The notes under the pieces: model-generated | Seen by the model: the letters and a program-made list of their open reading frames with translations, nothing else | What the model was told of the DNA's origin: nothing | Database searches by the model: none | Part shown: piece by piece, positions 1 through 45,978 of the stretch | Numbering within the stretch: the stretch's first letter is position 1 | Layout: each line of letters opens with the position of its first letter | Made by a program: the position numbers and the translations under genes | From: a virus | Lineage: Duplodnaviria > Caudoviricetes | DNA: 46,385 nucleotides | Direction: 5' to 3' (one strand) | IMG/VR virus record: IMGVR_UViG_3300031227_000091 | Location: 1 to 46,385 of that record

Positions 1-102
1 TATGACTTACTCTGCCGTCTGCTTCTATATCGCACATCACCGTTTTAGGACTTCCGCACTTCTTGCACTCTTTGCCAAAAAACTTGTTTGTGTATTCGCC
101 GT
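1..102. repeat. 102-bp exact direct repeat, copy 1 (circularisation or assembly overlap)
   Basis: 1-102 identical to 45762-45863; sequences diverge at 103 vs 45864. Confidence 0.97.
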
Positions 103-6475: not shown

Positions 6476-6873
6476 TAATTATTATCCCAATCCCTAGTTG
6501 TTTCGCCAGTAAAAAATTGAGCCTTGAAGCTTTCCTTGCTTGCTTCCGCTAACGTTCCAGAAATATCAAGCGTGATCGCCTGTTGTCCGTATGTTGTCTG
6601 ATAATATCCCACCTTAAGTGGATTTTTATAATCATCTTCACTTTCATCTATAATTATATTAATAGCCTGACGGTACTTTAAACAAGCAAAATGAGCTGAT
6701 AGGTACAACTCAATATTTGTAAGTCTTGTATCTGAATAACCATTAGCCGCTAAGTCGGTTGTAACAATGTCATTTGCAACGCCTATAAATACCGTCAAGT
6801 CGTCGGTGGCTGCAATGCCAGCATCGCTTGATATAATTGCAAATACTTCATCGCTTGTTACTCTATTAGCCAT
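6475..6873 (-). CDS. Head-tail adaptor
   Basis: IELYLSAHF and TTYGQQAITLD motifs. Confidence 0.75.
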   Translation of the reverse strand: MANRVTSDEVFAIISSDAGIAATDDLTVFIGVANDIVTTDLAANGYSDTRLTNIELYLSAHFACLKYRQAINIIIDESEDDYKNPLKVGYYQTTYGQQAITLDISGTLAEASKESFKAQFFTGETTRDWDNN

Positions 6874-10310: not shown

Positions 10311-10362
10311 AGTATATTACAATTTTGTAGTTTTGTCAAGAAAAAACTTACAAAAATGTAAG
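10311..10362 (-). promoter_or_regulatory. Late promoter for capsid operon with CTTACA-N4-TGTAAG operator
   Basis: TTGACA(10339-10334)-17-TATACT; operator 10347-10362; degenerate second site 10316-10331. Confidence 0.8.
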
Positions 10363-10408
10363 TTTTTTTGTTAATCCCCCTTAGTGTTCTTTGTATTTTA
10401 TAAAATTA

Positions 10409-14705: not shown

Positions 14706-14757
14706 ATAATAATCTATTATCCGTGCATTGTCAAGCAAAATCTTACAAAAATGTAAG
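14706..14757 (-). promoter_or_regulatory. Late promoter for portal operon with CTTACA-N4-TGTAAG operator
   Basis: TTGACA(14734-14729)-17-TATTAT; operator 14742-14757. Confidence 0.8.
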
Positions 14758-14808
14758 ATTCTTATTTATCGAGCTTAATTTATTTTTCATTTATTTTTAG
14801 TTTAGCTG

Positions 14809-19375: not shown

Positions 19376-19571
19376 TGTCTACCCTTATTAAATTATATCC
19401 AAGAATGATAATACTTTCAAATTCGCATTCTTCTAAACGCCCTAACTCTTCGCTTACCATCTCTATTTCATCAAATGTTTTAATTTTCTCAAGTCTATCG
19501 ACGGTTGCGTTTTTGAAATTAACACTACTATGCCTTTTTATAACATAGCCAACAAAATAAATATATTTCAT
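19368..19571 (-). CDS. Hypothetical protein
   Basis: Overlapping ORF string. Confidence 0.65.
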   Translation of the reverse strand: MKYIYFVGYVIKRHSSVNFKNATVDRLEKIKTFDEIEMVSEELGRLEECEFESIIILGYNLIRVDND

Positions 19572-19855
19572 CCTTTAACCTCCATCCACTTGTCGTAGTC
19601 AGCTTGTAGGTTTTCCCATAGCTCGGGCGTCGTGTTGGTTGCCCTTGCTAATTTACATTGAAACATTATAGAGCATGATATATTTTTCTTTATTAAATTT
19701 TGAATGCATAAAACATTTAGATCATGCATTATGCAAAATTCTTCTACACTTATATTCAACCCGTCAATATACAGCTCTTTCAATATCTCGCCTGGGTGAG
19801 CCGGGCATACCTTGTGTTGTTCGATTGGTAATACTTTTTCTTTTTTCTTTTCCAT
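19568..19855 (-). CDS. higA: HigA/VapI-family antitoxin-like HTH protein (orphan)
   Basis: PAHPGEILKELYI and TTPELWENLQADYD signature; no adjacent HigB. Confidence 0.8.
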   Translation of the reverse strand: MEKKKEKVLPIEQHKVCPAHPGEILKELYIDGLNISVEEFCIMHDLNVLCIQNLIKKNISCSIMFQCKLARATNTTPELWENLQADYDKWMEVKG

Positions 19856-19879
19856 GTCTAAATCCTTTTAAGTTAAAAA

Positions 19880-19999
19880 TGGCGCCGGCTATGTGAGATT
19901 TAAACTCACTTCAACGTTTCCTTAAGTATTGCCTTACTTGTAACAGGAATATTCGTTATTTCAGAACGCCTTTAGCAAATATCAACGCCCTAAGCCAGC
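19880..19999 (-). ncRNA. tRNA-like RNA B2 (acceptor stem, T-arm, encoded CCA; multibranch insert)
   Basis: GCTGGCT/AGCCGGC+G+CCA; GTGAG-TTTAAAT-CTCAC; no canonical D or anticodon arm. Confidence 0.65.
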
Positions 20000-20013
20000 A
20001 TATAAATTAAAAA

Positions 20014-20189
20014 AGCGGACGGCGGGATTCGGTTCCCGCAAGTTGTCTTTGCTTCTGACTTATGGAGTTGCGCTTTTACCCGAATAAACCTCGGATACCA
20101 TAAGCCTAGTTAATTCATTAAGGATTTCGCATAGCTTATCCACGTTGACAACGCCTCAATGTACACGTCTCAATTCCGCCACGTCCGCT
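20014..20189 (-). ncRNA. tRNA-like RNA B1 (Leu/Ser-type scaffold with about 130-nt structured insert)
   Basis: GCGGACG/CGTCCGC, TGGCGGAATTGAGACGT D-arm, GCGGG-AACCGAAT-CCCGC T-arm, nested stems, U6 tail. Confidence 0.75.
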
Positions 20190-20449
20190 AAAAATCAACG
20201 CTGGGTATAGCTCCAGAGGCTTACTCTAAAGTACATCTAGTTTAGCCGTTTGTCAAGCTTTGAGTTTAGCCAATCACATATTTGCTTTATCTTAAGCTCC
20301 TTAAATATAGCTTCTTTTAAATCATTCCACGCTTCGGATAATGTTTTATCTTTCTCTTTCATTTCATCGCTCATTTTGCGCCTCGTTGGTTAAGTCTGGC
20401 TTCGTGCCATTGTTTGGTTAGTTCTTCGTTATTAAATATGTGCTCGTGG

Positions 20450-20788
20450 TTAGTTGCCATTGACCCACCCCTTGCTATCTATATACGCCTTACATTCTGC
20501 TTCGGTCTGGAAAGCTTCGCCTTTTTTGAACATTCTATTATGAAATGAAGTTACACTATCAAGTGCCATTTTTTCACATGTCCATTCGCTAAACAAATAG
20601 AAAGGAGTATAATAAATATCTCTAACTTTAGGTATCCATTTGCTTTTAAAATCGTCGCTACGGTCAACTGGCGAAGCCCTGCTTAGTATTCTTACTTTGT
20701 CGTCCCACTCAATAGGGTTAACAACAATATGCGTACAATCATTGCTTCCTTTGACATATTCTATATGCTGCTTTCCTTTGTCTTTCAT
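20450..20788 (-). CDS. Hypothetical protein
   Basis: Overlapping ORF string. Confidence 0.65.
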   Translation of the reverse strand: MKDKGKQHIEYVKGSNDCTHIVVNPIEWDDKVRILSRASPVDRSDDFKSKWIPKVRDIYYTPFYLFSEWTCEKMALDSVTSFHNRMFKKGEAFQTEAECKAYIDSKGWVNGN

Positions 20789-21186
20789 CCCATCTCCTTT
20801 GTTATTTTATTTCTTTTTTCACATTCGAGACATGCTTCAGATTTAGTTAAGAATAAATCATGCTCATTCCAAAGTGTTCCGCTGCCTACGCCTGTGCTAT
20901 CCAACATATATTGTCGTCTATCATCGTTTTTGTATTCTTTATCATATAACTCAAGTGATATTTTTCCTATTTTTCCGATAATGTCTAGCTGTACATCCCA
21001 CTTCGTAGAAAACCATTCCCTTTTACCACCACTGCCAGAACAATCTGGACATAGAACTGTTCTGGATGTATTATTAATTTTTACCCTACCTTCTCTACAG
21101 GTTTTGCAATTAATGAAATCACTATAGCAACCTTTTTTAATTGGATAAACTCTGTCTTTTAAGTTAAACTTTGTTTTGATATTCAT
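20785..21186 (-). CDS. Protein with DnaJ-type CxxCxGxG Zn finger
   Basis: CKTCREG...CPDCSGSG. Confidence 0.7.
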   Translation of the reverse strand: MNIKTKFNLKDRVYPIKKGCYSDFINCKTCREGRVKINNTSRTVLCPDCSGSGGKREWFSTKWDVQLDIIGKIGKISLELYDKEYKNDDRRQYMLDSTGVGSGTLWNEHDLFLTKSEACLECEKRNKITKEMG

Positions 21187-21200
21187 TTTACTCTCCTTTG

Positions 21201-21455
21201 TTATTTACAAATATATTTTTTAAAGTTCCACCATCTTTTTTTAGGCTCAAATAAAACAGCTTCCAATTTGCAATATCCATTTTTATTTGCAGTTTTTTGA
21301 TTTTTTTTCACAAAACAATTTCTCATCCACTCACATCTATATATTCTTAGTCCTCCAGTTGCTACATCTTTACTGACTATTGCTTTTGGGTGTTTACAAG
21401 ATGCTTTATCATATCCCCACTGGTCGCAAAACTTACAATCTTTACATAGTTTCAT
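21201..21455 (-). CDS. Small Cys-rich protein
   Basis: CKDCKFC...CKHP...CEWMR...C. Confidence 0.7.
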   Translation of the reverse strand: MKLCKDCKFCDQWGYDKASCKHPKAIVSKDVATGGLRIYRCEWMRNCFVKKNQKTANKNGYCKLEAVLFEPKKRWWNFKKYICK

Positions 21456-21494
21456 GCCTAACCTCCGTTATTCTATTAGTTTACAAATATTTTC

Positions 21495-22268
21495 TCAAGT
21501 TTTATTTACTGGTCTATCATTTTTTGTAAACTTAGGTTTTGCATTCCATTGTAAGAACTCAAGCCTTAATAAGCGGCTTCTAAAAGCTTCTCCGGTGTCT
21601 GAGTCTTCAAACTTACGAACTATCTCAACTCCGCTGAGGTTTGCGGATAAGTATATTTTAGCATTACCCCTGCCGGTATAAAGGTAATCAAGCAGGTTAT
21701 ATAATCCCTCTCCGCCAGATAATGATATTTTCTTTTTTCCTATATCATCAATTACTAGAAAGTCGTTTTGTAATAGTTTCTCAAGCCAAGCATCTGCGCT
21801 TATCTTGCCGGATTCAGAGCTTTTGTGTCCATATCGTGATAAAAATTCATTGCATGTTATATATTTGCATTTTCTGCCTTGTTTGGTTAATAATCCAAGA
21901 TTGTTACATATTGCTCTTGTTTTTCCACATCCATAATCTCCTGAAATCCATAGATGTTTATTTCTATTACTCCATGCCCATTCAGCTAATGCGCTGTTAT
22001 CAGACGTTTTAGAGCGATCAAAGCTTGTAGAGAATGGTATTGCTCGCAATTTCTTTTCTAAGGCTTCAAGTCTTATGCTTTCGTTTTCTTTTAATTCCTC
22101 TGCTTCTATACACTTATCGCACTTTGCACGATTTATCATTGTTTTTTCAAGTGATCTAAACATCTTTTCAAAATCATCCTTACAGCTATCTTCTGTTCTC
22201 AACTCAACTTTATATTTATTTTTGCAAATATCACATATTACTTCGACTATCTCGTTTTTAGATTCCAT
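21495..22268 (-). CDS. DnaC/IstB-like AAA+ helicase loader
   Basis: GDYGCGKT Walker A, LVIDDIG Walker B, N-terminal Zn motif; follows initiator. Confidence 0.88.
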   Translation of the reverse strand: MESKNEIVEVICDICKNKYKVELRTEDSCKDDFEKMFRSLEKTMINRAKCDKCIEAEELKENESIRLEALEKKLRAIPFSTSFDRSKTSDNSALAEWAWSNRNKHLWISGDYGCGKTRAICNNLGLLTKQGRKCKYITCNEFLSRYGHKSSESGKISADAWLEKLLQNDFLVIDDIGKKKISLSGGEGLYNLLDYLYTGRGNAKIYLSANLSGVEIVRKFEDSDTGEAFRSRLLRLEFLQWNAKPKFTKNDRPVNKT

Positions 22269-22992
22269 AACTTTTTACTCCTTGTTTTTTATTGTCGTTT
22301 GCTTTATCAAGTTCACCAGTCCAATTATTAAGCAATGTTATTATATCCCTGCGGTAAAACTTAAACCCTGAATTATAAAGTTCCATGATTAATTCTAATT
22401 CTTCAACAACATTTATTCTTTTAATTATTTCGTTTAATTTCTTTTTTTCTTTTTCGCTCCATTCGGTTGTTTCTCTACGATTATAAAATTCACAAATTGA
22501 AGATATTACTTTTTCTTTAGTTTCATTTTGTTTAGTATTGTTTAGTTTACTTTGTGGGTTATTGTTATCATTAACAGGGTTTTGGATTACATTAACCCTA
22601 CTAGACAAGCCTAATTGCTTACATATATCTTGTTTTTGTAGCAGGTTTACATTGCGGCGTTTATAAACATCAAGCAAACCATCTATGAATTTTTGAGAAA
22701 ATATTATTTTACTTTCCCACATCTTGAAATCAATACACCCTAACTCTGCAAGCTCTTTTAGTATCTGTATACACCTATACTCATCAACCAGCATTTCTGC
22801 TGACAATAATTTCCACTTAGATTTATTCCTGCAATCAATAAAATGATTTTCTGTACGCCCTAATTTTTGCAATAGCTTAACCCAGAAAGCAAATCCGTCA
22901 TTTCCAAACTTGCTTTCAATTATTTTCATACTATCAGAAAAAGCACAATCTAAAGGAAAGTAGTCAACTATTGCTTTTGTAGGTCTAGCCAT
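22258..22992 (-). CDS. Replication initiator (DUF4373-like N-terminus)
   Basis: MARPTKAIVDYFPLD...FGNDGFAFWVKLL; upstream of loader. Confidence 0.8.
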   Translation of the reverse strand: MARPTKAIVDYFPLDCAFSDSMKIIESKFGNDGFAFWVKLLQKLGRTENHFIDCRNKSKWKLLSAEMLVDEYRCIQILKELAELGCIDFKMWESKIIFSQKFIDGLLDVYKRRNVNLLQKQDICKQLGLSSRVNVIQNPVNDNNNPQSKLNNTKQNETKEKVISSICEFYNRRETTEWSEKEKKKLNEIIKRINVVEELELIMELYNSGFKFYRRDIITLLNNWTGELDKANDNKKQGVKSYGI

Positions 22993-23112
22993 AATTTACC
23001 ACCTTTTGAAGAATTGCATTTAGTACACAAAACCTGAAAATTATCAATTTCATTTTACCCATCACCCATCCTCCTTAATCTTTGTGAGCCATTGATCTGC
23101 CATTGCTTTAGC
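22993..23112 (-). pseudogene. Adjacent relics: C-terminus of a phage cytosine MTase-like gene and of an HNH gene
   Basis: AKAMADQW...stop (23112-23062); NEIDNFQVLCTKCNSSKG (about 23055-23000). Confidence 0.6.
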
Positions 23113-23119
23113 CCTTTTT

Positions 23120-24058
23120 TTAAAATAGATATGCTTGATTATTTCTTTTTTCTGATATTTTCACATATTCAGGGTTAAGCTCTACTAATATACAGTTTTT
23201 TCCCTGTGCTTCTGCCTCTAATGCGGTTGTTCCGGCGCCACCAAACGGGTCAATAACCAATCCGCCGTCTGGACATCCAGCTTTAATACATGGTCTTATA
23301 AGCTCTCTTGGGAATGTGGCAAAGTGCGCCCCTTTGTATGGTTTTGTGTTGACGGTCCACACGGAACGCTTGTTTCTTGTTTCATATTGGTTTGTCTTTA
23401 ACCCGGCCATTCGTGAACGTCCGGGAGTATTGTTTAGTTTTGTGTTATCTCTATCTCTGTTTGAATCATCAAATGTAGAGGTTTGTTCTTTTATTGCATC
23501 ATTATCATAATAATACTTTTTTGACTTTGACAACAAGAAAATATACTCATGCGCCTTTGTGCATCTGTCGGTTACGCTTTCAGGCATTGGATTTGGCTTG
23601 TGCCAAATAATATCTTGTCGTAAATACCATCCATCTGTCCGCAAAGCAAAAGCAACCATCCACGGGATTCCAATTAGGTCTTTAGGCTTATAATCTTTAG
23701 TAGTAAAATTACTAAACACATCTCCCATTACTGTTCCTGCCGAAGTTCCCTGTTTTGCAATTAAAGCGGAAACATGAACGGTTCCGTCAGGATTTCTACC
23801 CTTACCGGATCCGGCGTAACTATCACCCAAATTAAGCCATAATGTTCCATCATCTTTCAGTATGCGTTTTATTTCTCTGAATACTTTAACCATGTTGGCC
23901 ACATATAATTCAGGCGTTTTTTCATTGCCTAATTGATTGTCGTTACCATAATCCCTCAACCCCCAATAAGGCGGTGAAGTTACGCAGCAATTAACGCTTT
24001 CAGATTCAACATCTTTTAGTTTTTCTATGCAATCACCTGTTATATGTGTTACCTTCAT
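23120..24058 (-). CDS. DNA methyltransferase, beta class (N4-cytosine/N6-adenine)
   Basis: TSPPY catalytic motif, HFATFP, DPFGGAGTT SAM-binding motif. Confidence 0.93.
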   Translation of the reverse strand: MKVTHITGDCIEKLKDVESESVNCCVTSPPYWGLRDYGNDNQLGNEKTPELYVANMVKVFREIKRILKDDGTLWLNLGDSYAGSGKGRNPDGTVHVSALIAKQGTSAGTVMGDVFSNFTTKDYKPKDLIGIPWMVAFALRTDGWYLRQDIIWHKPNPMPESVTDRCTKAHEYIFLLSKSKKYYYDNDAIKEQTSTFDDSNRDRDNTKLNNTPGRSRMAGLKTNQYETRNKRSVWTVNTKPYKGAHFATFPRELIRPCIKAGCPDGGLVIDPFGGAGTTALEAEAQGKNCILVELNPEYVKISEKRNNQAYLF

Positions 24059-24092
24059 TCCCTTTTCCCGTGTTAAGATTAAAAATGTTTAT

Positions 24093-24488
24093 TCAAGCTA
24101 CCTTAATAAAGCAATTTGCAAAACTTGAAGCAATCATTTTACTTTTGAACCCATCGCCGGCATAGTAAATATGTTCAGATCTAACAAATCTAACAATAAA
24201 CAATTTTCCGGTATGTATATTTTTAAATAATCGACCCTTTAGTTTTTTCCTTTTATACAAATTATAAACTTTATTATTTTTCATTGTTCTATCCCTTAAA
24301 GGTTTAGTATTAATTATCTTTCCGTTTTTGCCATAAAACTTCTTAGACAAAAACTCTTTATGCTGTGTGAGAACATGACAATCACAAATAATTCCACCAC
24401 CCGTTTCTCGGTAACTACAGTTTTCATCATGTTTATAAATAGGTATTTTGTCTATTATCTGAAAAGCCCTTGGATAATCAACACTCAT
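24093..24488 (-). CDS. Hypothetical protein
   Basis: Overlapping ORF string. Confidence 0.65.
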   Translation of the reverse strand: MSVDYPRAFQIIDKIPIYKHDENCSYRETGGGIICDCHVLTQHKEFLSKKFYGKNGKIINTKPLRDRTMKNNKVYNLYKRKKLKGRLFKNIHTGKLFIVRFVRSEHIYYAGDGFKSKMIASSFANCFIKVA

Positions 24489-24811
24489 AATCCTCCATTG
24501 TTAAATGTTTCTATTTTCAGTTTTAATTCCTGTTCCAACTCTTGAAGCTCGGGAAGGCTCCAGATGTATACCCTCTGGTCGAGATCGCTTGTTATAGTAG
24601 GTTCATAGTCGTGCTCCGCCATGTGGCACGGGCGCCAGCAAAGCCATACTAGATTTTCTTGGTTCCAACGTTGCCGCCTGTGGTCGCAGCTTATAATATG
24701 ATGTGCTCCGCTGCCTTCGCGTTCGCGTCCACATTTCTTGCATATACCGCCAGCCATAAGCCTGCATAGCTCGCTTGCTAACTTGTCTAGTCGCTTTTCG
24801 ATTGGTCTCAT
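24485..24811 (-). CDS. NinG/Rap-like HNH nuclease
   Basis: LDKLASELCR, CKKCG, AHHII, NLVWLCWRPCH. Confidence 0.7.
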   Translation of the reverse strand: MRPIEKRLDKLASELCRLMAGGICKKCGREREGSGAHHIISCDHRRQRWNQENLVWLCWRPCHMAEHDYEPTITSDLDQRVYIWSLPELQELEQELKLKIETFNNGGL

Positions 24812-25191
24812 TTTATTTTCCTGATATTAATTGAATTCCACGACATTCCGCATCCAAAAGAGAAAGCTGGGAATTCATTATCTTTATCATCTTCTTCAAG
24901 CTCATCATCGTAATCACCAAATTCACTGCCAATAGCCTCATAAATTTCATCATCTAAAAGATTATACCATTCGTCGCTTGTGGTGTTTGTTTTTGAATCA
25001 ACCAATATTAAATAATGGTTTGGTCTATCATCCATCGGATATAAGAAAATCAACTTTTTACCATCTCCGTATACCGTTGACAGCAAGGCTGGTTTAATTA
25101 AATAATTTTTAGTCCAATGAACAGCGTTTTGCTCTTTAGTATATTCAGAAAGCATATTTTCTTCTTCTTGAGTTATATTTCTTTCTTCCAT
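24808..25191 (-). CDS. Acidic hypothetical protein
   Basis: ORF with RBS. Confidence 0.65.
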   Translation of the reverse strand: MEERNITQEEENMLSEYTKEQNAVHWTKNYLIKPALLSTVYGDGKKLIFLYPMDDRPNHYLILVDSKTNTTSDEWYNLLDDEIYEAIGSEFGDYDDELEEDDKDNEFPAFSFGCGMSWNSINIRKIK

Positions 25192-25251
25192 ATTCCCATC
25201 CTTTTTTTGTGCCGTCCCCGGCGTTTATATTTTACTGATTAGTGGTTCTAA

Positions 25252-26655
25252 TTATTTCCCTGCTTGAATAGTTTTTGATAATTCTAAATATTCATTTACC
25301 CAGTTGTGCGGAATATCTTTTTCGGCTTTTATATATCGTGCAAAAGCCTCTTTTATTTCTTCAAGCCTTTGTTCGTTGCTTATATATCGAGGTTTTAATC
25401 CAAGTGGTGGTTTTACTTTCCCCCTAGCGTGTTGGTTAAAGTCTAGCGTTGCGCAATCGGGTGGAGTTGACGGCTCTTTGATGCGGTAGTCTTTTAATTC
25501 ACCGCCATGCTTAAAAATGTTTAATTTATTTTGTAAATATGCATCAATCCATCCGTCGCGAGTATGGTTACACTCCATATTCCTACAATCATCATCGCAC
25601 GCTTCCATGAACTCGTCTAGCGTTTTGCCACAGGCGGAAATTGACTGTTTAACTAATCGTAAAGTATTAAGCGGTACAGCTCCAACTAGATTATAGGCAT
25701 CATCATTACTGCCAAATACATTAGACCATCCGTCTTTGTTTTTAATTTGGCAATATAAACTTTTATTCCATAAAGCATTTGTGAACTCGTTAATATTTCT
25801 ACCACAGGCGGAAAGCTCTACAATGCGATATGCCTGTAATCCAAAGGATTTTATTGATTCTACTAAATTAAAAGCATCGCTCTTGACCCATGTTCCTGCG
25901 GCGCAAAACTCAACATTGCTATCATTCATGTGCTTACTTGCCATAAATTCATCGAAAGTTTTTCCGCAATCCGAAAGCTCTTGTTTAATCTCGTCCACAA
26001 AGCAGTCGTCCTTGAATGAGAATAGCGGATGTTCAATACTGTTAAATACTGGTTTTTTGGAAAACGATAGTATATATTCGCCTGTAATGGAATATCTATA
26101 AAGGTGCAAAAATAACTCTTTTGTTTTTTTAACTGTCGCTCTTTTGTGCTGAGAACCCCACTTGACACCACAACTAAAACAAATCTCCTGAACTAGCCTA
26201 GACTCCTCCGGCGTAACTTCCAGCTTCATATCAACCTTATCTCTTAAGGCTCGGCGAAAAACAGGGTGGTCGTATTTGGCTTGCCATTCTTGGAACGTGA
26301 GGACGGTATAGGTTTGGCTTTTATAACAATCAACCGTTCCATATCCATGACTATTATTCCATCGTATTGCACTATCTTCAAAATAATTATTCCAGCTTCC
26401 GCCACCACGCCAATCTAACTTATAAAACTTAGTTACATAATCCCATTCTTCCTGACTTCTTACATTGACGACTTCTTTCATTGTTTCATCTCCATTGGTT
26501 GCTTGTTTCGGCGAATCCTGTTTTGCCATTAGATACTGGGCGTTTGTTTTGCACTTTAGGCAGTCTACGGGAATCCACTCCTTCGTCATAGTCCAGCCCT
26601 CTGCGCTAGGCGTACAGGCGCAAACGTTATTGTGATTCTTAAAGTGGGTTCTCAT
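25252..26655 (-). CDS. Mosaic multi-module protein with three internal SxCG(K/R) repeats
   Basis: SDCGKTFDEF, SACGRNINEF, SACGKTLDEF; C-terminal KPPLGLKPR module. Confidence 0.75.
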   Translation of the reverse strand: MRTHFKNHNNVCACTPSAEGWTMTKEWIPVDCLKCKTNAQYLMAKQDSPKQATNGDETMKEVVNVRSQEEWDYVTKFYKLDWRGGGSWNNYFEDSAIRWNNSHGYGTVDCYKSQTYTVLTFQEWQAKYDHPVFRRALRDKVDMKLEVTPEESRLVQEICFSCGVKWGSQHKRATVKKTKELFLHLYRYSITGEYILSFSKKPVFNSIEHPLFSFKDDCFVDEIKQELSDCGKTFDEFMASKHMNDSNVEFCAAGTWVKSDAFNLVESIKSFGLQAYRIVELSACGRNINEFTNALWNKSLYCQIKNKDGWSNVFGSNDDAYNLVGAVPLNTLRLVKQSISACGKTLDEFMEACDDDCRNMECNHTRDGWIDAYLQNKLNIFKHGGELKDYRIKEPSTPPDCATLDFNQHARGKVKPPLGLKPRYISNEQRLEEIKEAFARYIKAEKDIPHNWVNEYLELSKTIQAGK

Positions 26656-26680
26656 TCCGCGCCTCCAGTTATTAGTTAAG

Positions 26681-26902
26681 TTAGGATTTTATTTGTTTGT
26701 TAATGGGAATTAATGTTTTTTTAAATTCGGTAATTTCTTTTAACGCCCATTTTTTTGCTTTTACTTCAGCTCTACCCCAAAAAGGCGAAATTTGTTCGCT
26801 TGCCACTTCTTCATCTTGGCAAAATATTGTTATTCTCCAACAGTTGCCGCAAACAAGATAAATATCAACGGTATAATTGCCATCTTCTATTATTCTAATC
26901 AT
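26681..26902 (-). CDS. Hypothetical protein
   Basis: ORF string. Confidence 0.6.
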   Translation of the reverse strand: MIRIIEDGNYTVDIYLVCGNCWRITIFCQDEEVASEQISPFWGRAEVKAKKWALKEITEFKKTLIPINKQIKS

Positions 26903-26903
26903 T

Positions 26904-27122
26904 TTACTTCTCCTTGTTGAATTTTAGATGCGACGTTATGAGGCTTTTGGTACAGTTAGGAGGATTGGGTATATCCATCCAGTGAGTATATGATTTATCT
27001 AATGCAAGACTAGTCCAGCAATTATCATCTGTCCACCAAACATCTGTAATCCTAAATCCGTTTTTGTGCCATAAATCAACTGGCGTTCCGTCCCTAGGTG
27101 CTGTTTCTATTGGTTTCCACAT
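26904..27122 (-). CDS. DUF551-like protein
   Basis: WKPIETAPRDGT...THWMDIPNPP. Confidence 0.75.
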   Translation of the reverse strand: MWKPIETAPRDGTPVDLWHKNGFRITDVWWTDDNCWTSLALDKSYTHWMDIPNPPNCTKSLITSHLKFNKEK

Positions 27123-27125
27123 ATC

Positions 27126-27593
27126 TTACTCTCCTTTTTTGATTGCTTCGGGAATAGGATACCCAAAGTTTTGAATACAGAACTCGTCTAAAAAGCTTAT
27201 GTACTGTGCCATGAGCTCCATGCTTGCATCTCGTTTGTTAAATTCTTTTAGTCCTTTTTTGATGCAGAAAAACATTTTCATCATTTTATCGACATTTTCG
27301 ATAGTTGCTTTAGGTGCTACTGTATAGCCGAATTTCTCAACCTCGTACAAATGCCCGTGTCTTTCCTTGAACAGTATTACCATGAATTCATATATCCCAC
27401 ATTTACCGCCTTCTCTTGAAGTAGCATATAGAAATCCGAGTTGCTTATTGCTTTTAGGCTTCTTGATATTAGAGAATTCAGCAGTAACCCATTGATCCTC
27501 TTTGACAGCCTCCTGCACCGCCAAAAACTGATTGCGATAAGCCGGAGCAAGCACCCCGTCTTTCTTCTGCCACACTATTTTGGTCTTTTTCAT
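27126..27593 (-). CDS. NinB-like recombination accessory protein
   Basis: KPKSNKQLGFLY...ELMAQYI...GYPIP resemblance; next to exonuclease. Confidence 0.5.
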   Translation of the reverse strand: MKKTKIVWQKKDGVLAPAYRNQFLAVQEAVKEDQWVTAEFSNIKKPKSNKQLGFLYATSREGGKCGIYEFMVILFKERHGHLYEVEKFGYTVAPKATIENVDKMMKMFFCIKKGLKEFNKRDASMELMAQYISFLDEFCIQNFGYPIPEAIKKGE

Positions 27594-27916
27594 TATAATC
27601 GACCTTTGCCTCTACAATTCATGCATTCTACATCGCGACCCCAGCCATCTAAAACCGTTCCAGATGTATTACAATCTTTACAGGGATTAGTTGACCGTAT
27701 CCATTGTTCTTTTTTAGTATTTTCTTGCTTTAGTTTTCTAAGTTCTTCTTCAGCTCGTGATTCCACCGGACTTGATATACAATCGCTTCCAGTGGCCGTC
27801 CCGTAGTTTTCAAACGCACCCTCTATCCAATCAGTTACATTATCAATCTGTTTATCACTTGCAACTAATTCAGAATCGTCAAAAGCTTCCTTTATGCATT
27901 CTTTCCAGTAATTCAT
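27593..27916 (-). CDS. Zn-finger hypothetical protein
   Basis: CKDCNTSG...CMNCRGKG. Confidence 0.7.
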   Translation of the reverse strand: MNYWKECIKEAFDDSELVASDKQIDNVTDWIEGAFENYGTATGSDCISSPVESRAEEELRKLKQENTKKEQWIRSTNPCKDCNTSGTVLDGWGRDVECMNCRGKGRL

Positions 27917-27952
27917 ACTCCCTCCTAGATTTCAATTATTGAGTTAAAGTTT

Positions 27953-28744
27953 TCATATTGCGATTGCATCCTCGAATGATTCTAAAACTTTAGTATTTTT
28001 GCAATGATCGCATTGCTCACACCGCCGCAAGTCTTTTTCGTCAACTTCGCCAGCTTTAATTTTCAAAATAAACGGCTGGTATTCTTTAACGCTTTCTATT
28101 TCTTGATACATTCTATCCGTGCAGTCTTGATCTGAAAACTCGATAATCTTTATATCTGGTGTTTTCTCTTTGGTAACAGCACAAATAGCCATTACAAAGC
28201 CGTACTCGTATTTTTGCTCTATTGCCTCTTGGTATATGGCAAGTTGCAAAAAGTAGTTGTAAGCTTCGTAAAAAGGCACTTTCCGCTTATGTATATCACT
28301 CCATATTGCTTCAAAGCTTCGAGTTGTTTTTAAATCATAGCCAATACAAGCCTCCGTATTTATAAAGTCTGGCAGACACTTCCACTTAACGCCGTTAATA
28401 TCTGCAATCAATACTTGCTGTTTTAATCCCGTCATGCATGACATAAAAAGCCTATCTCTCTCTATTCGTGCAATCATTATATCGGCGTTTACAAATGGAG
28501 ATTTTAGTTTGTTGCTTTTGCCATATATTTCAGGGTGTTTTTCTTTCCACTCGTCAAACGTTCCGGCAAAATAAGCATCTACATAAGAACCTATTAACAG
28601 CGCATCAGTTACGGGGCGTTTATATTCGTGCGTAACGTACTGATGATAAGCCGAAAACTCGCACTTTTTAAAAGCCTTGAACTGTGAAACGCTCAAGTAC
28701 TCTTTGTCTGATTCTGGACTAAAATAATTATCAAGTGTTAGCAT
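27953..28744 (-). CDS. PD-(D/E)XK exonuclease, RecE/ExoVIII-like (DUF3799-like)
   Basis: YLSVSQFK, KCLPD, DLKTT, YFLQLAIY. Confidence 0.85.
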   Translation of the reverse strand: MLTLDNYFSPESDKEYLSVSQFKAFKKCEFSAYHQYVTHEYKRPVTDALLIGSYVDAYFAGTFDEWKEKHPEIYGKSNKLKSPFVNADIMIARIERDRLFMSCMTGLKQQVLIADINGVKWKCLPDFINTEACIGYDLKTTRSFEAIWSDIHKRKVPFYEAYNYFLQLAIYQEAIEQKYEYGFVMAICAVTKEKTPDIKIIEFSDQDCTDRMYQEIESVKEYQPFILKIKAGEVDEKDLRRCEQCDHCKNTKVLESFEDAIAI

Positions 28745-29465
28745 TTTTAGCCTCGCTTATTTTATCTTCAATTTTTCCATCTGTAATACATTTTTGTATA
28801 TCACCATATTGAGCATTTATTATTTCAGTTGAACTCTCAATTTTATATACCTTTTTCAAATATTCGGTTATTATTTCAGGAGTATAATTCATGCTTGAAA
28901 CTAACGCCCCTAGCTTTTGCCTATCTGCTGTAGATATTTTTTTAGTTTTCCATTCATTAATATCTTTTGCCTTTTTTTCGTCTGCAAATTCTTGTGTTAT
29001 TTGGCTTACATATTTGCAATCATCAAACTTGCCCTCAAATACATCAGAGTTAAAGCCTAATGCCGAAAGCCCCTTAGTTAATGCGTTAGTCTGCACCTTT
29101 TTGGTGTACTCGTCATCTATTTTAAGATAACCTGGTTTATCTTTGTAGCTTTGTGTCATGTAAGCAACTTTAACAACGGCGTTTATTGGCAGAATACCAA
29201 TTTCGTCATTATACTTATAAAACATGACAGCCTTATAAGACACAAGAGTTGTTTCACCAAATGAATTAAAAGTAAATGATTCCGATTCGGGTTCGATTCC
29301 CCAGCCTATGCCATAACAGCCAAATATTTCGGTTGCATTTTTTCGCTGGTGTTGCGGACTAATAGCGGTAATATTCATCGCCCCAATTTTAGCACCTTTA
29401 GTTATGATTGGGTCTGTTCTGCATACTGAGTTCCATAGTTTTAAGTTTGTCTTTTCTGTTGTCAT
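28731..29465 (-). CDS. Single-strand annealing protein (Rad52/Sak-like)
   Basis: ATEIFGCYGIGWG, KKVQTNALTKGLSALGFNSDVFEG; paired with exonuclease. Confidence 0.7.
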   Translation of the reverse strand: MTTEKTNLKLWNSVCRTDPIITKGAKIGAMNITAISPQHQRKNATEIFGCYGIGWGIEPESESFTFNSFGETTLVSYKAVMFYKYNDEIGILPINAVVKVAYMTQSYKDKPGYLKIDDEYTKKVQTNALTKGLSALGFNSDVFEGKFDDCKYVSQITQEFADEKKAKDINEWKTKKISTADRQKLGALVSSMNYTPEIITEYLKKVYKIESSTEIINAQYGDIQKCITDGKIEDKISEAKNANT

Positions 29466-29480
29466 AATCTTATCCTTTGG

Positions 29481-29801
29481 TTAAAATTCTATTACTTGGT
29501 CTTTAAAGCGGTTGTATATTAAATCCTTGTTTTCGTCGGTAAGCTTTAACTGTTGAAGTTCCTGCTCACATAGACCGTTGACTATCGGCTCTATCTTATC
29601 AAAAGCGGGGTCAAGTTCGAGAGACTCATCGGGGCAGTCCCAAGCTATAAATAGTTTAACGTCGTTATTCATGGTAATTGTTACAATTAGATCGCTGCCG
29701 TCAATGCTTATTCTAAAGTTCCGCCCAAGCGAAATATAGGACTCCTCCAACTTGTAATCTCCGGCGTTAATCTTTGACGTGATGTAATCTTGGATTTTCA
29801 T
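29481..29801 (-). CDS. Hypothetical protein
   Basis: ORF string. Confidence 0.65.
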   Translation of the reverse strand: MKIQDYITSKINAGDYKLEESYISLGRNFRISIDGSDLIVTITMNNDVKLFIAWDCPDESLELDPAFDKIEPIVNGLCEQELQQLKLTDENKDLIYNRFKDQVIEF

Positions 29802-29804
29802 TGG

Positions 29805-30008
29805 CTAGATCCTTTTTATGCCAGTTTGAAACAAATGTAAACATTGTATGTTGTCAACTCTGTAATGTTCATTTATATTAGCAAAATAAAATCTGTAATT
29901 TCTATATTTCCAACGTCTGCCAAATTTATCAGAAAAGAAACAATCATCGTTGCTAACCATGTCAACTAAAAATTCTGATACCGTATTGTAGATTATATAT
30001 TCTGTCAT
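29805..30008 (-). CDS. Hypothetical protein
   Basis: ORF string. Confidence 0.6.
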   Translation of the reverse strand: MTEYIIYNTVSEFLVDMVSNDDCFFSDKFGRRWKYRNYRFYFANINEHYRVDNIQCLHLFQTGIKRI

Positions 30009-30109
30009 TTCTTCACCGCCTTTTTTTCTTTATGAATAATGCTAAATTTTGTCTAATGATTTTGATTTCTTTTCCGCTAAATTTAATATTAAATATTGTT
30101 TTCATTTCT

Positions 30110-30313
30110 TCACCTCGCCAGCCCGAAGCCGTCTAGCCACTTGCCGTCTTTCATTACGCCGTATCGTGCGTTTTCTTCTCTTTGAGATTGCTTTCCGGCA
30201 TCGAAGCCCTCGCCGTATTCTTTGGTAAGTTGGTTTTCTTTGTTTATTAGTATTGTTGCGAGTATTGCAATTATTGCGAGTAATACTAAAATTATTGCTA
30301 TTGTACCTCTCAT
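30110..30313 (-). CDS. Small membrane protein
   Basis: N-terminal TM, ATGA overlap. Confidence 0.65.
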   Translation of the reverse strand: MRGTIAIILVLLAIIAILATILINKENQLTKEYGEGFDAGKQSQREENARYGVMKDGKWLDGFGLAR

Positions 30314-30654
30314 TTTTTAGCTCCATATGTAAGTTTTAACCGTTCATATTCTGCCCGCTCCGCAAGTTCTTTGGCTTTTTTGCCCTTGTCGTCGTATATT
30401 CGATTAAGCATTTTATTGATTGCCTTAGATTGCTTTTGGGTAAATATGAGTTCCATGAAACACTCGCCCGTGCTGTTATATGGTTCACCTTTGCCGGTGC
30501 AATTCCACAGACAAAATTCATATCCGCCAATCTCAATTTTGAGCCAGACGGTGTCATCGCTTGATTTCCTCCAGTTTTTTACTTTAAACTCCTCATTAAG
30601 TATCTTTTCTACGAAGTAATCATTAATTTCCTTGATTGATTTTTTAATATTCAT
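30310..30654 (-). CDS. Hypothetical protein
   Basis: Start MNIKKS after GGAGG RBS. Confidence 0.65.
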   Translation of the reverse strand: MNIKKSIKEINDYFVEKILNEEFKVKNWRKSSDDTVWLKIEIGGYEFCLWNCTGKGEPYNSTGECFMELIFTQKQSKAINKMLNRIYDDKGKKAKELAERAEYERLKLTYGAKK

Positions 30655-30760
30655 TTCCCAGCCTCCACGTTTCCTATCATTTCCCGAAATCTCCTTGTCC
30701 CCGTGAGATAAAAGACGACAAAGGACGCCCATGCGATAAAACAAATTGCGTATAGGGTTT

Positions 30761-30946
30761 TCATTGTTTTTTTGCCTCCTTTAACATTGATTCCAATTTT
30801 GCAGCGGTGTAGACTATTTCGCTTTCCAGTATTCCTATTTGGTGTAGTTTGTTAGTGCCGCCGTGTTCTAATGCCTTGTCTCTTGCCCTTGCTGGCACTT
30901 CACGCAACCGCTTTACGAGTTTGCCTATTTCAAAATTGATGTTCAT
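30761..30946 (-). CDS. Hypothetical protein
   Basis: ORF with RBS. Confidence 0.6.
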   Translation of the reverse strand: MNINFEIGKLVKRLREVPARARDKALEHGGTNKLHQIGILESEIVYTAAKLESMLKEAKKQ

Positions 30947-30965
30947 AATTACCTATCTCCCTTGT

Positions 30966-31117
30966 TTAATCGATTAATTTTTTGCTCCAGCAATTAGTCC
31001 AGCAACGACTATCTGTTGCTTCTTTAGCTTTTTTCTGACACTCCTTGATGGTTGAACTTTAATTACAACACTATCTTCATTACCGTCTATTCCTGTTCCG
31101 TGTATTTCAAATCTCAT
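30966..31117 (-). pseudogene. Small gene with probable single-base deletion
   Basis: MRFEIHGTGIDGNEDSVVIK then -1 frame STIKECQKKAKEATDSRCWTNCWS; the unshifted frame also gives 47 aa. Confidence 0.4.
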
Positions 31118-31154
31118 AATCTCCATTCCCTTGTTAAAATTGTTTACTTAAGTT

Positions 31155-31228
31155 AAAAAAGCGGGCGGCGGTTATTCGCTGAGGAGTAATTGAAGAGGAG
31201 AAAATTGTAGGAATTTCCACCACCCGCT
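31155..31228 (-). ncRNA. Hairpin sRNA A4 with C/U-rich anti-Shine-Dalgarno loop and U6 tail
   Basis: AGCGGGTGGTGG/CCGCCGCCCGCT; loop has TTCCT, CTCCTC, CTCCTC. Confidence 0.65.
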
Positions 31229-31236
31229 AAAGTTAA

Positions 31237-31336
31237 TAGTGAGTTAATATTATTGCAGGACTCGAACCTACACTTGACTTCCGCCCGTTCTCCTAGTCGC
31301 CATGAACCGACCATTAAACTATCAACTAACTCACTA
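31237..31336 (-). ncRNA. tRNA-like RNA A3 (D and T arms; anticodon arm reduced to GNRA tetraloop)
   Basis: 12-bp outer stem; TAGTTTAATGG...AGAAC; GGC-GGAA-GTC; GTAGG-TTCGAGT-CCTGC. Confidence 0.75.
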
Positions 31337-31346
31337 AAATATAGAA

Positions 31347-31523
31347 TAAACAAGCAATCTGTCGCATTTTCCTCCAATCTCCTGTTCCTTATAATGAATT
31401 TTGCAAAATTCTTTATATATCTACATCAGAAGGCAATTGCCAAGTATCTCTATTTGTTTATTGCTAGCCATCCACAAATAGGGCGACGACAACTTTTGAT
31501 AAGTCATGGGTCATGCTTGTTTA
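31347..31523 (-). ncRNA. Multibranch structured RNA A2
   Basis: TAAACAAGCA/TGCTTGTTTA closing stem and several inner stems; flanked by a repeated 13-nt linker. Confidence 0.55.
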
Positions 31524-31533
31524 AAATATAGAA

Positions 31534-31648
31534 TAGATTGCGGACGGCAGGGATTTGAACCCTACATGAGAAATATTCTCGGGTACGTTTGCAACCGTTC
31601 TTCTCACAACCCACGTACGCCTACCCATTCCGCCACGCCCGCAATCTA
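31534..31648 (-). ncRNA. tRNA-like RNA A1 (Leu-type with variable arm; non-canonical extended anticodon arm)
   Basis: GCGGGCG/CGTCCGC+A inside a 13-bp stem; TGGCGGAATGGGTAGGCGT; GAGAA/TTCTC variable arm; GTAGGG-TTCAAAT-CCCTGC. Confidence 0.75.
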
Positions 31649-32111: not shown

Positions 32112-32870
32112 TTATTTTATATTCCACAATGCTTTAACTTGTTTTATTGCTTTGTTGTATTGTTTCCTATATTTATTTGTTTTATCTGGATATGATTCTT
32201 TTACTCGTTCAGAAAATTCTGATAACGAACTTTTAAAACATCCGCAGACTACAAATATTCTTCTTTTATTCTTGTAAAAAATTGTAGAAGCTGAACGACT
32301 ACCAATTAAATCACTATAATATATTTGCGGCATTGTCTTACAAGAGCTACAAGAGCGACAAGAGCTACAATCGCTACAATCGCTACAAGAGCTACAATCG
32401 CTACAAGAGCTACAAGAGCGACAAGAGCTACAATCGCTACAATCGCTACAATCGCTACAAGAGCTACAAGAGCTACAAGAGCTACAATCGCTACAAGAGC
32501 TACAAGAGCTACAAGAGCTACAAGAGCGACAAGAGCTACAAGAGCTACAAGAGCGACAAGAGCGACAATAGCTACAATAGCTACAATAGCTACAATAGCT
32601 ACAATCGCTACAAGAGCTACAAGAGCGACAAGAGCTACAAGAGCTACAAGAGCGACAAGAGCGACAATAGCTACAATAGCTACAATAGCTACAATAGCTA
32701 CAATCGCTACAATAGCTACAATAGCTACAATCGCTACAATCGCTACAATCGCTACAATAGCTACAATCGCTCATTGTCTTACTTAGCTCTTGCGCTCTTT
32801 CTTCCGTGTAACAATTGCAATTCCAAGTATTATTGTTTTCATCTGTCCATTTGTTATTAATTTTTTTCAT
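32112..32870 (-). CDS. Cys tripeptide-repeat protein with C-terminal IGSR...CGCF domain
   Basis: 48 x (S/R)xC; C-terminus resembles that of phage pentapeptide/hexapeptide-repeat proteins; GAGGAG RBS. Confidence 0.85.
   Translation of the reverse strand: MKKINNKWTDENNNTWNCNCYTEERAQELSKTMSDCSYCSDCSDCSDCSYCSYCSDCSYCSYCSYCSYCRSCRSCSSCSSCRSCSSCSDCSYCSYCSYCSYCRSCRSCSSCSSCRSCSSCSSCSSCSDCSSCSSCSSCSDCSDCSDCSSCRSCSSCSDCSSCSDCSDCSSCRSCSSCKTMPQIYYSDLIGSRSASTIFYKNKRRIFVVCGCFKSSLSEFSERVKESYPDKTNKYRKQYNKAIKQVKALWNIK
32340..32771. repeat. 9-bp tandem repeat, 48 units of four types
   Basis: Minus-strand units AGCGATTGT, AGCTATTGT, AGCTCTTGT, CGCTCTTGT. Confidence 0.95.
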
Positions 32871-45583: not shown

Positions 45584-45666
45584 ATATTATATTGTTTTAA
45601 TACAAAAGTCAAGCAAAAAACTTACATTTTTGTATCTTTTGTTCATATTTCTTACATTTTTGTAAG
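45584..45666 (-). promoter_or_regulatory. Late promoter for fibre/lysis operon with two operators
   Basis: TTGACT(45612-45607)-17-TAATAT; CTTACA-TTTT-TGTATC 45621-36 and CTTACA-TTTT-TGTAAG 45651-66. Confidence 0.75.
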
Positions 45667-45699: not shown

Positions 45700-45978
45700 T
45701 TATTTATCCGCTGTTTGCGGTTTGAACTTATCGCATTTAACTGGATTACATTTTTTTGAACTATGACTTACTCTGCCGTCTGCTTCTATATCGCACATCA
45801 CCGTTTTAGGACTTCCGCACTTCTTGCACTCTTTGCCAAAAAACTTGTTTGTGTATTCGCCGTAAGTGCATTTATTAGGATCTATACCAGCTCTTAATAG
45901 TTTTGCTTTTTCTAAAAGCCTCCTGGCTGTTTCCTCGTATCTCTCTGCTGTTTTTATTAGTGTTTTATTCATAGTCAT
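45700..45978 (-). CDS. Cys-rich tail-tip-associated protein, variant B
   Basis: ATGA overlap with upstream gene; C-terminal region shared with variant A. Confidence 0.75.
   Translation of the reverse strand: MTMNKTLIKTAERYEETARRLLEKAKLLRAGIDPNKCTYGEYTNKFFGKECKKCGSPKTVMCDIEADGRVSHSSKKCNPVKCDKFKPQTADK
45762..45863. repeat. 102-bp exact direct repeat, copy 2
   Basis: Identical to 1-102. Confidence 0.97.

Follow-up and report, generated by a model that had tools for sequence, protein, structure and literature searches.

A 46-kb salt-lake phage carries two minus-strand arrays holding six stem-closed RNA units in total, and one of these, B1, is a member of a large phage RNA family in which a covarying tRNA-Leu-type frame encloses a variable insert. 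The insert of B1 is a newly recognized portable module that is conserved independently of the frame around it. The anatomy of the units, the covariation of the frame, the missing anticodon arm, the many inserts found within one frame, and the single insert found within several frames are all direct observations. Literature searches returned no description of either the frame family or the B1 module; among the supplementary files of PMC10690425, six held no match, and three more may hold such motifs.

Here, the window is the whole 46,385-nucleotide stretch that was analyzed (IMG/VR record IMGVR_UViG_3300031227_000091). Both arrays are genuine, and an assembly artifact is excluded: array B is covered by a contig from another run and array A by two contigs from other runs, with 0 differences in each case. 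None of 15 sequencing runs listed was an RNA run, which has no bearing on expression. All six units that the original prediction had placed in two minus-strand arrays are present (Table 1), and its count of arms is borne out, with T arms in A1 (aberrant 8-nucleotide loop), A2 (loop UUUAAAU), B1, and B3 and D arms in A1, B1, and B3. Canonical T arms occur only twice in the window, in B1 and B3 and both on the minus strand, compared to 0.11 per resampled window, where the descriptors used in the chance tests of unit layouts were composed after the units had been seen. The 12-nucleotide motif predicted to end both arrays is found exactly twice in the window (0.14 expected; 1 of 100 shuffles reached two). 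As had also been anticipated, ARAGORN with default settings called 0 ordinary tRNA genes in the contig, and Rfam matched neither array at an E value of ≤1 when the whole window was scanned. A scan of the arrays alone gave nothing near a gathering score, and the matches elsewhere in the window fall at or next to a 9-nucleotide coding repeat, far below their gathering scores.

Table 1. Features of the two arrays and their surroundings (window coordinates)
Feature	Position	Strand	Description
HigA-family antitoxin gene	19568..19855	-	TIGR02607, 49.1 bits (cut-off 47.7)
12-nt end motif, array A	19868..19879	-	TTTTTAACTTAA
A2	19880..19999	-	7-bp acceptor, two long arms, T-like arm, 2-nt linker, G73, encoded CCA
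A1	20015..20188	-	Leu-type frame around 125-nt insert
12-nt end motif, array B	31148..31159	-	TTTTTAACTTAA
B4	31161..31227	-	11-bp GC-rich stem, pyrimidine-rich loop, then U6
B3	31238..31335	-	Long closing stem, D stem, canonical T arm
Spacer copy 2 (B2-B3)	31335..31348	-	14 nt, A/U rich
B2	31349..31521	-	173 nt, 8- to 9-bp closing stem, no tRNA arms
Spacer copy 1 (B1-B2)	31522..31535	-	14 nt, A/U rich
B1	31540..31642	-	Leu-type frame, 7-bp acceptor and 6-bp T stem
B1 insert module	31566..31616	-	Helix P2, hairpin P3, candidate pseudoknot P1

Array B begins with B1, which has the GG and UUC of the D and T loops, A15:U48, A73, and the D loop GAAUGGGUA. Its branch is 7/6, compared to 7/5 in canonical class II tRNA-Leu, its acceptor is lengthened by 6 bp of flanking sequence (positions 31534 to 31648), and its fold has a z-score of -3.5. 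B2 is bounded on either side by the same spacer (0.15 expected) and contains two perfect palindromes (31396 to 31411 and 31432 to 31441) and a purine-rich, Shine-Dalgarno (SD)-like tract ahead of a 10-codon frame. Comparable end stems arise in 20 of 20,000 shuffles, and the fold z-score of -1.05 places the B2 interior within chance; B2 is the weakest of the six units. B3 is a T-arm unit with a hairpin inserted in its D loop and a 3-bp arm with a GGAA tetraloop where the anticodon arm belongs. Its layout was found in 0 of 200 resampled windows, its fold z-score is -3.4, and a covariance model of the frame family (described below) detects its T arm (E value of 0.07). Hairpin insertions in the D loop are also seen at loci L170 and L580. 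B4 (fold z-score of -4.5) carries two CUCCU (anti-SD-like) motifs in its loop, for which the phage genome offers no outstanding target, and its pairing with B2 is equaled by 74 of 500 shuffles.

A1 has a 7-bp acceptor, a D arm without the GG pair, and a T arm without UUC; it has U73 in place of A73, has no CCA, and is followed by U6. Its fold z-score is -2.9. Since the covariance model detects only its 5' part (E value of 0.85), its membership in the family rests on the identity of its ends with those of B1. By its sequence, A1 looks like a degraded paralogue of B1 with a damaged elbow, and B4, whose ends are also similar, is probably another. A2 has a perfect 7-bp acceptor stem and a noncanonical T loop; its layout was found in 1 of 200 resampled windows, and its fold z-score is -1.8. 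The HigA-family gene starts 24 nucleotides after A2, and no HigB-type toxin was detected among 78 open reading frames scanned.

The inserts of A1, A2, B2, B3, and B4 had no homologue in blastn against cultured phages or in other searches. Apart from the B1 module, cultured phages yielded nothing beyond short or chance blastn matches, whether the query was a whole array or A1, B2, or B3, and plasmids yielded none. The best relatives of the terminase over most of its length are 37 to 45% identical. A covariance model run on 42 of 90 protein-anchored (terminase/exonuclease) loci gave 0 matches, as did a strict B1 pattern in IMG/VR. Two loci that proved to be the window's own contig or an identical one were excluded as support. 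Antisense targets of more than 13 nucleotides were absent from the phage genome for all six units.

The frame family comprises an estimated 1,100 or so IMG/VR stretches. Its members lack even a cryptic anticodon arm and combine a variable insert with a covarying 7-bp acceptor, a T arm, a D arm of the Leu type, A15:U48, and A73. The acceptor is paired at 7 of 7 positions in 109 of 122 distinct viral units, compared to 277 of 3,839 when partners are swapped, and the search pattern did not require acceptor pairing. The original prediction had named covariation among homologs as a check, and in a frame alignment of 37 sequences, 99.6% of cells are paired and 142 cells are changed on both sides (0 of 500 shuffles). 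Possible marks of processing that lay outside the search pattern are frequent in the nonredundant units (U at position -1 in 92, A73 in 100, and C74 in 100 of 122), and A15:U48 is present in 116 of 122. A 6-bp T stem goes together with the D loop GAAU-GGRUA (19 of 19 units, compared to 7 of 92 others; P = 6e-16), and B1 has both; in this class, A73 is found in only 11 of 19 units and C74 in 1 of 19. A single covariance model scores B1 at 47.6 bits (E value of 1e-9), a unit of phage SPP1 (positions 6647 to 6756) at 49.5, and T5 RNA1 at 40.5. True tRNA-Leu is scored by this model as well (42.9), and B1-derived motifs were used to find its training set.

The inserts of the family are diverse, forming 117 clusters among 143 units, and at locus L095 the same frame recurs five times within 1.5 kb, each time around another insert. 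A helix ending 2 nucleotides ahead of the T stem is present in 39 of 122 units (5.4 expected), and anti-SD 5-mers are present in 9 of 122 inserts (3.3 ± 1.9 expected). Overall, insert structure is weak (median z-score of -0.74), and palindromic loops are not enriched (38, compared to 32.4 ± 4.8). A 5-bp anticodon stem with a 7-nucleotide loop directly after the D arm is found in 8 of 97 units, compared to 5.3 by chance. Default tRNA finders call only 3 of 122 family units, and several members outside the window pass the generic Rfam tRNA model with 30 to 46 bits.

Against this background of variable inserts, that of B1 stands out. Its helix P2 ends adjacent to the T stem, and its hairpin P3 (31585 to 31598) has an 8-nucleotide loop, G followed by UUGCAAA, that lies away from the canonical anticodon position. 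The last seven nucleotides of this loop are those of the anticodon loop of T5 tRNA-Cys, and the loop is self-complementary too. An 18-nucleotide core plus AGAAU is invariant among B1, locus L576, and the cultured Vibrio phages pYD21-A, K459, and 1.250.O. In L576, the module sits in a tRNA frame with a different acceptor and D arm, and in the three Vibrio phages it sits on plain stems; Bacteroidota-binned contigs share it with the salt-lake phage and the marine Vibrio phages. Among carriers, five of seven P2 pairs show compensatory, two-sided change, and the linker reads AGAAUR, with no C, in 6 of 6. The P1 pairing is formed in 44% of cells in an automatic alignment and spans 3 to 5 bp in a hand register, and as modeled it is probably a pseudoknot. 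The P3 hairpin alone also occurs in L095 and L580. In related modules, this part of the loop reads UCGA, CCGG, or CUAG, and what the loops have in common is self-complementarity and not an anticodon. Patterns for further carriers in IMG/VR and for the related module family in genomes returned 0 matches each.

The best explanation, which we consider somewhat probable, is that the units are host-processed small RNAs in which the frame is likely a protective chassis for a swappable insert that probably acts on host proteins or mRNAs. Because the insert of B1 recurs in unrelated phages within different frames, host-processed small RNAs are likely, and the insert is probably the working part. The suggestion that the units are stable scaffolds presenting effector RNAs, made in the original prediction, agrees with the covarying frame, the five inserts in the L095 frame, and the occurrence of the B1 insert in other frames. 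The arrays would be transcribed together with the surrounding replication and recombination operon, and host tRNA-processing enzymes would cut the units from phage transcripts, with RNase P and RNase E/Z freeing them at the U-rich spacers and CCA then being added; the 3' ends of A1 and B4 may instead lie at their U6 tracts. With its invariant UUGCAA loop, the B1 module could bind a protein or dimerize, and the B4 loop could pair with ribosome-binding sites. The likeliest purpose would be host takeover or counter-defense. We offer only tentatively the fuller picture of a plug-in RNA system, in which tRNA-Leu frames and long stems would be interchangeable, host-matured carriers of traded effector modules, the B1 module would be an aptamer that pairs with itself or mimics tRNA-Cys and puts a conserved host protein out of action, and the arrays would be RNA-only counter-defense cassettes.

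The reverse assignment of roles, in which the frame is the working part and the inserts are neutral filler, is unlikely, yet it has points in its favor. The units would then be matured, leucylated, nondecoding mimics that occupy LeuRS, EF-Tu, or toxins attacking the CCA end or elbow. Escherichia coli tRNA-Leu variants without anticodon and variable arms are still charged and depend on A73, A15:U48, and D/T-loop contacts, according to the available part of PMC9976931; the family retains these features, and B1 has A73 and A15. The available part of PMC5389517 likewise describes irregular tRNAs near toxin-antitoxin genes that are charged but do not translate, and the diversity of the inserts would suit filler. 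However, the B1 insert is conserved outside tRNA frames, B1's own T-stem class is poor in A73 and C74, A1 and A2 have U73 and G73, respectively, and tRNA arms are missing altogether from B2 and B4. A cis role, in which tRNA-like marks lead host nucleases to cut and stabilize long phage transcripts, or end them at the U6 after A1 and B4, is less probable again. Promoter and terminator scans found nothing convincing at either array, including directly upstream, and a gene starts shortly after A2 and about 19 nucleotides after the unit of Bacteroides phage BS-TP2. Since units are solitary at 71 of 80 loci and a start codon follows within 40 nucleotides in 43 of 111 family units (a count without a control), a cis role would also be suited. 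A single mark would be enough for this, yet there are runs of two to five units with unrelated inserts; moreover, the T5 counterparts are annotated as stable RNAs, and punctuation needs no invariant insert core.

The proposal in the original prediction that the units are anticodon-nuclease decoys does not hold as a general role, as anticodon-like loops occur in 24 of 122 family inserts, compared to 22.7 ± 4.2 by chance, and none of the other five units has a loop like that of B1. It could apply to the B1 module only, where a Cys-specific nuclease would be held, without cutting, by the displaced, tRNA-Cys-like loop, and there it is very unlikely: the loop is invariant in all carriers, and phage tRNAs counter anticodon nucleases (PMC11555353, available part), but the related modules have self-complementary loops rather than anticodons. 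Intron-containing tRNAs or decayed, functionless tRNA genes are more improbable still, and for the family of B1 this reading is largely refuted. With introns allowed, ARAGORN recognizes 76 of 99 units of the family, and it calls B1 as tRNA-Cys at a 90% threshold; oversized phage tRNAs have been interpreted as intron bearing (10.1101/356790, available part), an anticodon stem is kept in 5 of 32 nonarchaeal genome units, and A1 is degraded in appearance. Yet the threshold has to be lowered from its default before B1 is called, the anticodons forced on three units with near-identical inserts differ (His, Val, and Thr), frame and P2 show compensatory change, and only 3 of 111 viral units (1.35 expected by chance) allow the reconstruction of an anticodon stem with U33, compared to 35 of 37 archaeal intron tRNAs. 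We give hardly any credence to a minimal HDV-like (theta-type) self-cleaving ribozyme in the B1 insert. The likeness stems from the layout of the HDV ribozyme fold, which the insert resembles in its order P1-P2-P3-loop-P3'-P1'-linker-P2', 3-bp P3, and 8-nucleotide loop. Phage tRNAs have been connected with theta ribozymes, but in the same source an A at the first J4/2 position is the inactive control (PMC10879173, available part), and the linker of all carriers lacks the catalytic C at that position. P1 has only 3 to 5 bp, and the module lies within the frame and not at a tRNA 3' end.

Among known tRNA-like RNAs, several can be set apart from the units. Canonical tRNA-Leu has an anticodon arm after the D arm, which is absent here, and tmRNA is rejected by the lack of default ARAGORN calls, with only permuted calls at an 80% threshold, and by U3:G70 rather than G3:U70 in A2. 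In bacterial Y RNAs (YrlA), a tRNA-like D/T/acceptor module that has no decoding arm is fused to another functional module, and one such RNA, with a 7-bp acceptor stem, undergoes RNase P cleavage and gains CCA; YrlA is permuted and lies beside a Ro60 gene (PMC4201824, available part), whereas the array units are colinear with tRNA. We detected no Ro60 in the window, the best YrlA score was 18.7 (cut-off 69), and the permuted T-acceptor-D order is absent. Polycistronic, irregular tRNA-like RNAs near toxin-antitoxin genes, some charged but not translating, include the allo-tRNAs, which have 8/4, 9/3, or 7/5 branches and anticodons (PMC5389517 and PMC7609411, available parts), unlike the 7/6, armless B1. 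An allo-tRNA reading of B1 is rejected in the absence of an 8/4 or 9/3 branch with an anticodon. C4 RNA is processed by RNase P, and as a phage RNA that is freed from a longer transcript and offers its loops to mRNA, it is a model for B4, although B4 has no Rfam match and no target was found for it. C4 is the antisense RNA of phages P1 and P7 (Rfam RF01695; PMC2864571, available part).

The closest precedents are annotated in T5 and T4, so the claim of a new system was too strong: the arrays are of an already known kind. In T5 (NC_005859), RNA1 and RNA2 are "tRNA-like stable RNA with unknown functions," and RNAI, RNAIII, RNAIV, and RNA2H are also listed. Like B1, RNA1 lacks an anticodon arm and encloses a long insert between an acceptor stem, a Leu-type D arm, and a T arm, an arrangement seen in A1 by inspection only. 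RNA1 also adjoins stable RNAs that are closed by stems and have no arms, so that the mixture matches that of array B. In the T5 region examined, 24 annotated tRNAs surround the stable RNAs, whereas neither array lies inside a cluster of true tRNA genes; no insert similarity to the array units was found, and the T5 annotation has neither the 6-bp T stem nor the portable insert of B1. In T4 (NC_000866), rnaC (species 1 RNA) and rnaD (species 2 RNA) both adjoin tRNA genes. The predicted fold of rnaC, with an acceptor, two long arms, and a T arm, has the same layout as that predicted for A2, which also fits this type in its CCA end and lack of a D arm. A2 has no sequence match to rnaC and differs in its encoded CCA, perfect 7-bp stem, and noncanonical T loop. 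The present data connect the stable tRNA-like RNAs of T4 and T5, whose annotation still gives no known function, with an extensive family of phage RNAs that escapes default tRNA finders. An old curiosity becomes a testable question in cultured phages, namely, T5, SPP1, Bacteroides phage BS-TP2, and the Vibrio phages. Inserts that prove to be effectors would form a new class of RNA tools with which phages act against their hosts, and they would be the natural analogue of engineered tRNA scaffolds.

The two arrays are a real feature of the window, a complete 46,385-base contig with a terminal repeat, whose occurrences are salt-lake metagenomes and which carries the tailed-phage genes for terminase, portal, capsid, a DnaC-like loader, a replication initiator, a methylase and an exonuclease. 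All six units of the original prediction are present, and contigs of other runs cover both arrays with 0 differences. Array A lies between the replication genes and terminase and array B upstream of the recombination genes, each on the same strand as its flanking genes. As had been expected, ARAGORN found no tRNA or tmRNA in the window and Rfam gave nothing near threshold across either array; the 12-nt motif said to end both arrays occurs exactly twice, as does a 14-nt spacer. The only two canonical T arms in the window belong to B1 and B3. With descriptors drawn up once the units were known, resampled windows gave the A2 layout in 1 of 200 cases and the B3 layout in none of 200. Chance is likewise unlikely for the closing stem of B2 (20/20,000, post hoc descriptor), and the B2 fold is not beyond chance (z -1.05). 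Because both ends of B4 align with the ends of A1 and B1, this unit is probably, on these short alignments, a third and armless copy of the A1/B1 frame. The interior of B2 holds two perfect palindromes. At 16 nt, one of them exceeds every other palindrome in the contig, and its center, TTGCAA, is that of the B1 loop.

Coordinates of the features in the window and in comparison stretches from other phages
Feature	Sequence	Position	Strand
Unit A1	window	20015-20188	-
Unit A2	window	19880-19999	-
Unit B1	window	31540-31642	-
B1 insert (module)	window	31566-31616	-
Unit B2	window	31349-31521	-
B2 palindromes	window	31396-31411; 31432-31441	
Unit B3	window	31238-31335	-
Unit B4	window	31161-31227	-
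HigA-family antitoxin gene	window	19568-19855	-
252-aa repeat protein	window	32112-32870	-
Terminal repeat copies	window	1-124; 45762-45885	
Intergenic element TTGTCAAG	window	10333-10373; 14728-14768; 45615-45643	
Five frames around tRNA-Gln	L095	1-1494	
Non-coding region, Vibrio phage K459	L572	960-2080	
Non-coding region, Vibrio phage 1.250.O	L574	1000-1900	
GGAAAGAC-loop hairpin	L214	2970-2995	

The frame, a Leu-type tRNA-like acceptor stem with D and T arms, is widespread in phages. About 1,100 IMG/VR stretches, an estimate from 7 of 64 parts, match a search pattern in which a T loop follows the start of a Leu-type D arm at a spacing too great for a tRNA, and default ARAGORN calls only 3 of the 122 matches examined. 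The acceptor, whose pairing the pattern does not demand, is paired at 7/7 positions in 109 of 122 distinct units versus 277 of 3,839 swapped partners (best of four registers). Covariation, the check proposed earlier, was found in this feature outside the search pattern: 37 aligned units have 99.6% of cells paired and 142 double changes. Also unasked for by the pattern, A15:U48 is kept in 116, U-1 in 92, A73 in 100 and C74 in 100 of the 122 non-redundant units. Of the 111 units left after removing 11 with imperfect stems or D arm, 1 encodes CCA. One D-loop register accompanies a 6-bp T stem in 19/19 units versus 7/92; B1 has both, so decay does not explain its 7/6 branch, which is characteristic of the subfamily. 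With window sequence kept out of training, a covariance model (it also scores true tRNA-Leu) gave B1 47.6 bits (E 1e-9), the B3 T arm E 0.07 and only the 5' part of A1, at E 0.85; the test is partly circular because motifs derived from B1 had picked out the training units, one of which carries B1's insert. A small hairpin with a GGAAAGAC loop precedes units in several Bacteroides-type phages (L214, L091, L099, L102, L105 and L161), and similar hairpins also stand ahead of units in the Vibrio arrays.

The viral frame family does not conceal an anticodon arm. Rebuilding an anticodon stem with U33 succeeded in 3/111 viral units (1.35 by chance) versus 35/37 archaeal intron tRNAs that the pattern also matched, a positive control that sets intron-tRNAs apart, and forced intron calls gave differing anticodons for near-identical inserts. 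Among other genome units, 5/32 do hold such a stem. A helix ends 2 nt before the T stem in 39 of 122 units (5.4 expected), and the insert therefore behaves like a giant variable arm. Some inserts (L094, L290 and L374; 3/122 versus 0.26 by chance) contain a second T-arm-like hairpin. Y RNA, tmRNA, allo-tRNA and theta ribozyme were each rejected on a defining feature; the ribozyme reading draws on the HDV layout, and engineered tRNA scaffolds are a further comparison. The arrays are a variant of an already known but unexplained kind of phage RNA. T5 RNA1, annotated as a tRNA-like stable RNA whose function is unknown, shares the frame-family architecture (40.5 bits on the covariance model) and adjoins stem-closed stable RNAs; T4 rnaC is laid out as A2; and members without annotation occur in SPP1 and Bacteroides phage BS-TP2. 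Neither the frame family nor the module was found described in the literature searched, including parts of PMC10879173, PMC4810235, PMC10690425 (its supplements in part), PMC5737381, PMC2864571, PMC11555353, PMC7609411, PMC5389517 and 10.1101/356790, which supplied further background.

Frame and insert are separable, and what is new and tested here is that the B1 module is portable. For example, in L095 a true tRNA-Gln lies amid five identical tRNA-Leu-type frames whose five inserts, of 93-168 nt, are unrelated; most loci, 71 of 80, have just one unit. Conversely, the core of the B1 insert reappears unchanged between genes of Vibrio phages pYD21-A, K459, 1.285.O and 1.250.O, in stretches that bear no annotation and where plain closing stems house it, and also at locus L576, in a tRNA frame with different acceptor and D arm. 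Both sides of helix P2 changed in 5 of 7 pairs; support is lower for the putative pseudoknot P1, with 44% of cells paired when aligned automatically and 3-5 bp in a hand register. Among about 170 units the helix order of B1 fits five more, of a second insert family, versus none in five shuffle rounds and 1 in 1,000 shuffles of B1, under a post hoc descriptor. That family (L099, L106, L308, L391, L495 and L537) has the same three-helix order, full P2 covariation, differing self-complementary loop centres and frames with different acceptors. The last 7 nt of the B1 loop equal the T5 tRNA-Cys anticodon loop. Self-complementarity is a second property of the loop, and UCGA, CCGG or CUAG stands at that place in related modules; these four loop types suggest loop-loop dimers. 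When the four central loop bases were left free, a scan of genomes gave 37 matches: two inside tRNA frames, both UGCA, and 35 others, two with a palindromic loop. Neither anticodon-like nor self-complementary loops are enriched across the frame family, and no homologue was found for the inserts of A1, A2, B2, B3 and B4. In Vibrio phages K459 and 1.250.O, several stem-closed units lie within long non-coding regions; the annotated tRNAs of 1.250.O and 1.285.O are on the strand opposite to the model match.

We think that the units share a transcript with the phage operon, from which host enzymes then free them; a promoter scan found nothing convincing ahead of them. Processing by RNase E and by RNase P, which also processes C4 RNA, would fit the U-rich spacers, U-1 and the 7-bp stems. 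Y RNA is a precedent for release by host processing, as described in part of PMC4201824. At A1 and B4, which finish with U6, a terminator may set the end. The frame or stem would shield the RNA and the insert would act, that of B1 through its invariant loop and that of B4 through anti-SD motifs. Inserts show a modest excess of such motifs (9 versus 3.3), and those of B4 have no clear target in the phage. The chief rival holds that the frame itself is leucine-charged and serves as a decoy; in its favor, leucylation requires A73 and the elbow and dispenses with the anticodon arm (part of PMC9976931). As to what an acting insert would serve, a HigA-family antitoxin gene (above the curated cut-off) directly follows array A, which occupies the usual position of the toxin gene; no toxin was detected with it, a weak hint of counter-defense.

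Elsewhere in the contig, the terminal repeat copies share just 94% identity across the first 124 nt. The 252-aa protein is mostly a 9-nt tandem repeat (about 45 copies), which accounts for spurious Rfam microRNA matches. The intergenic element starting TTGTCAAG, with an internal inverted repeat, is a candidate phage promoter or operator.
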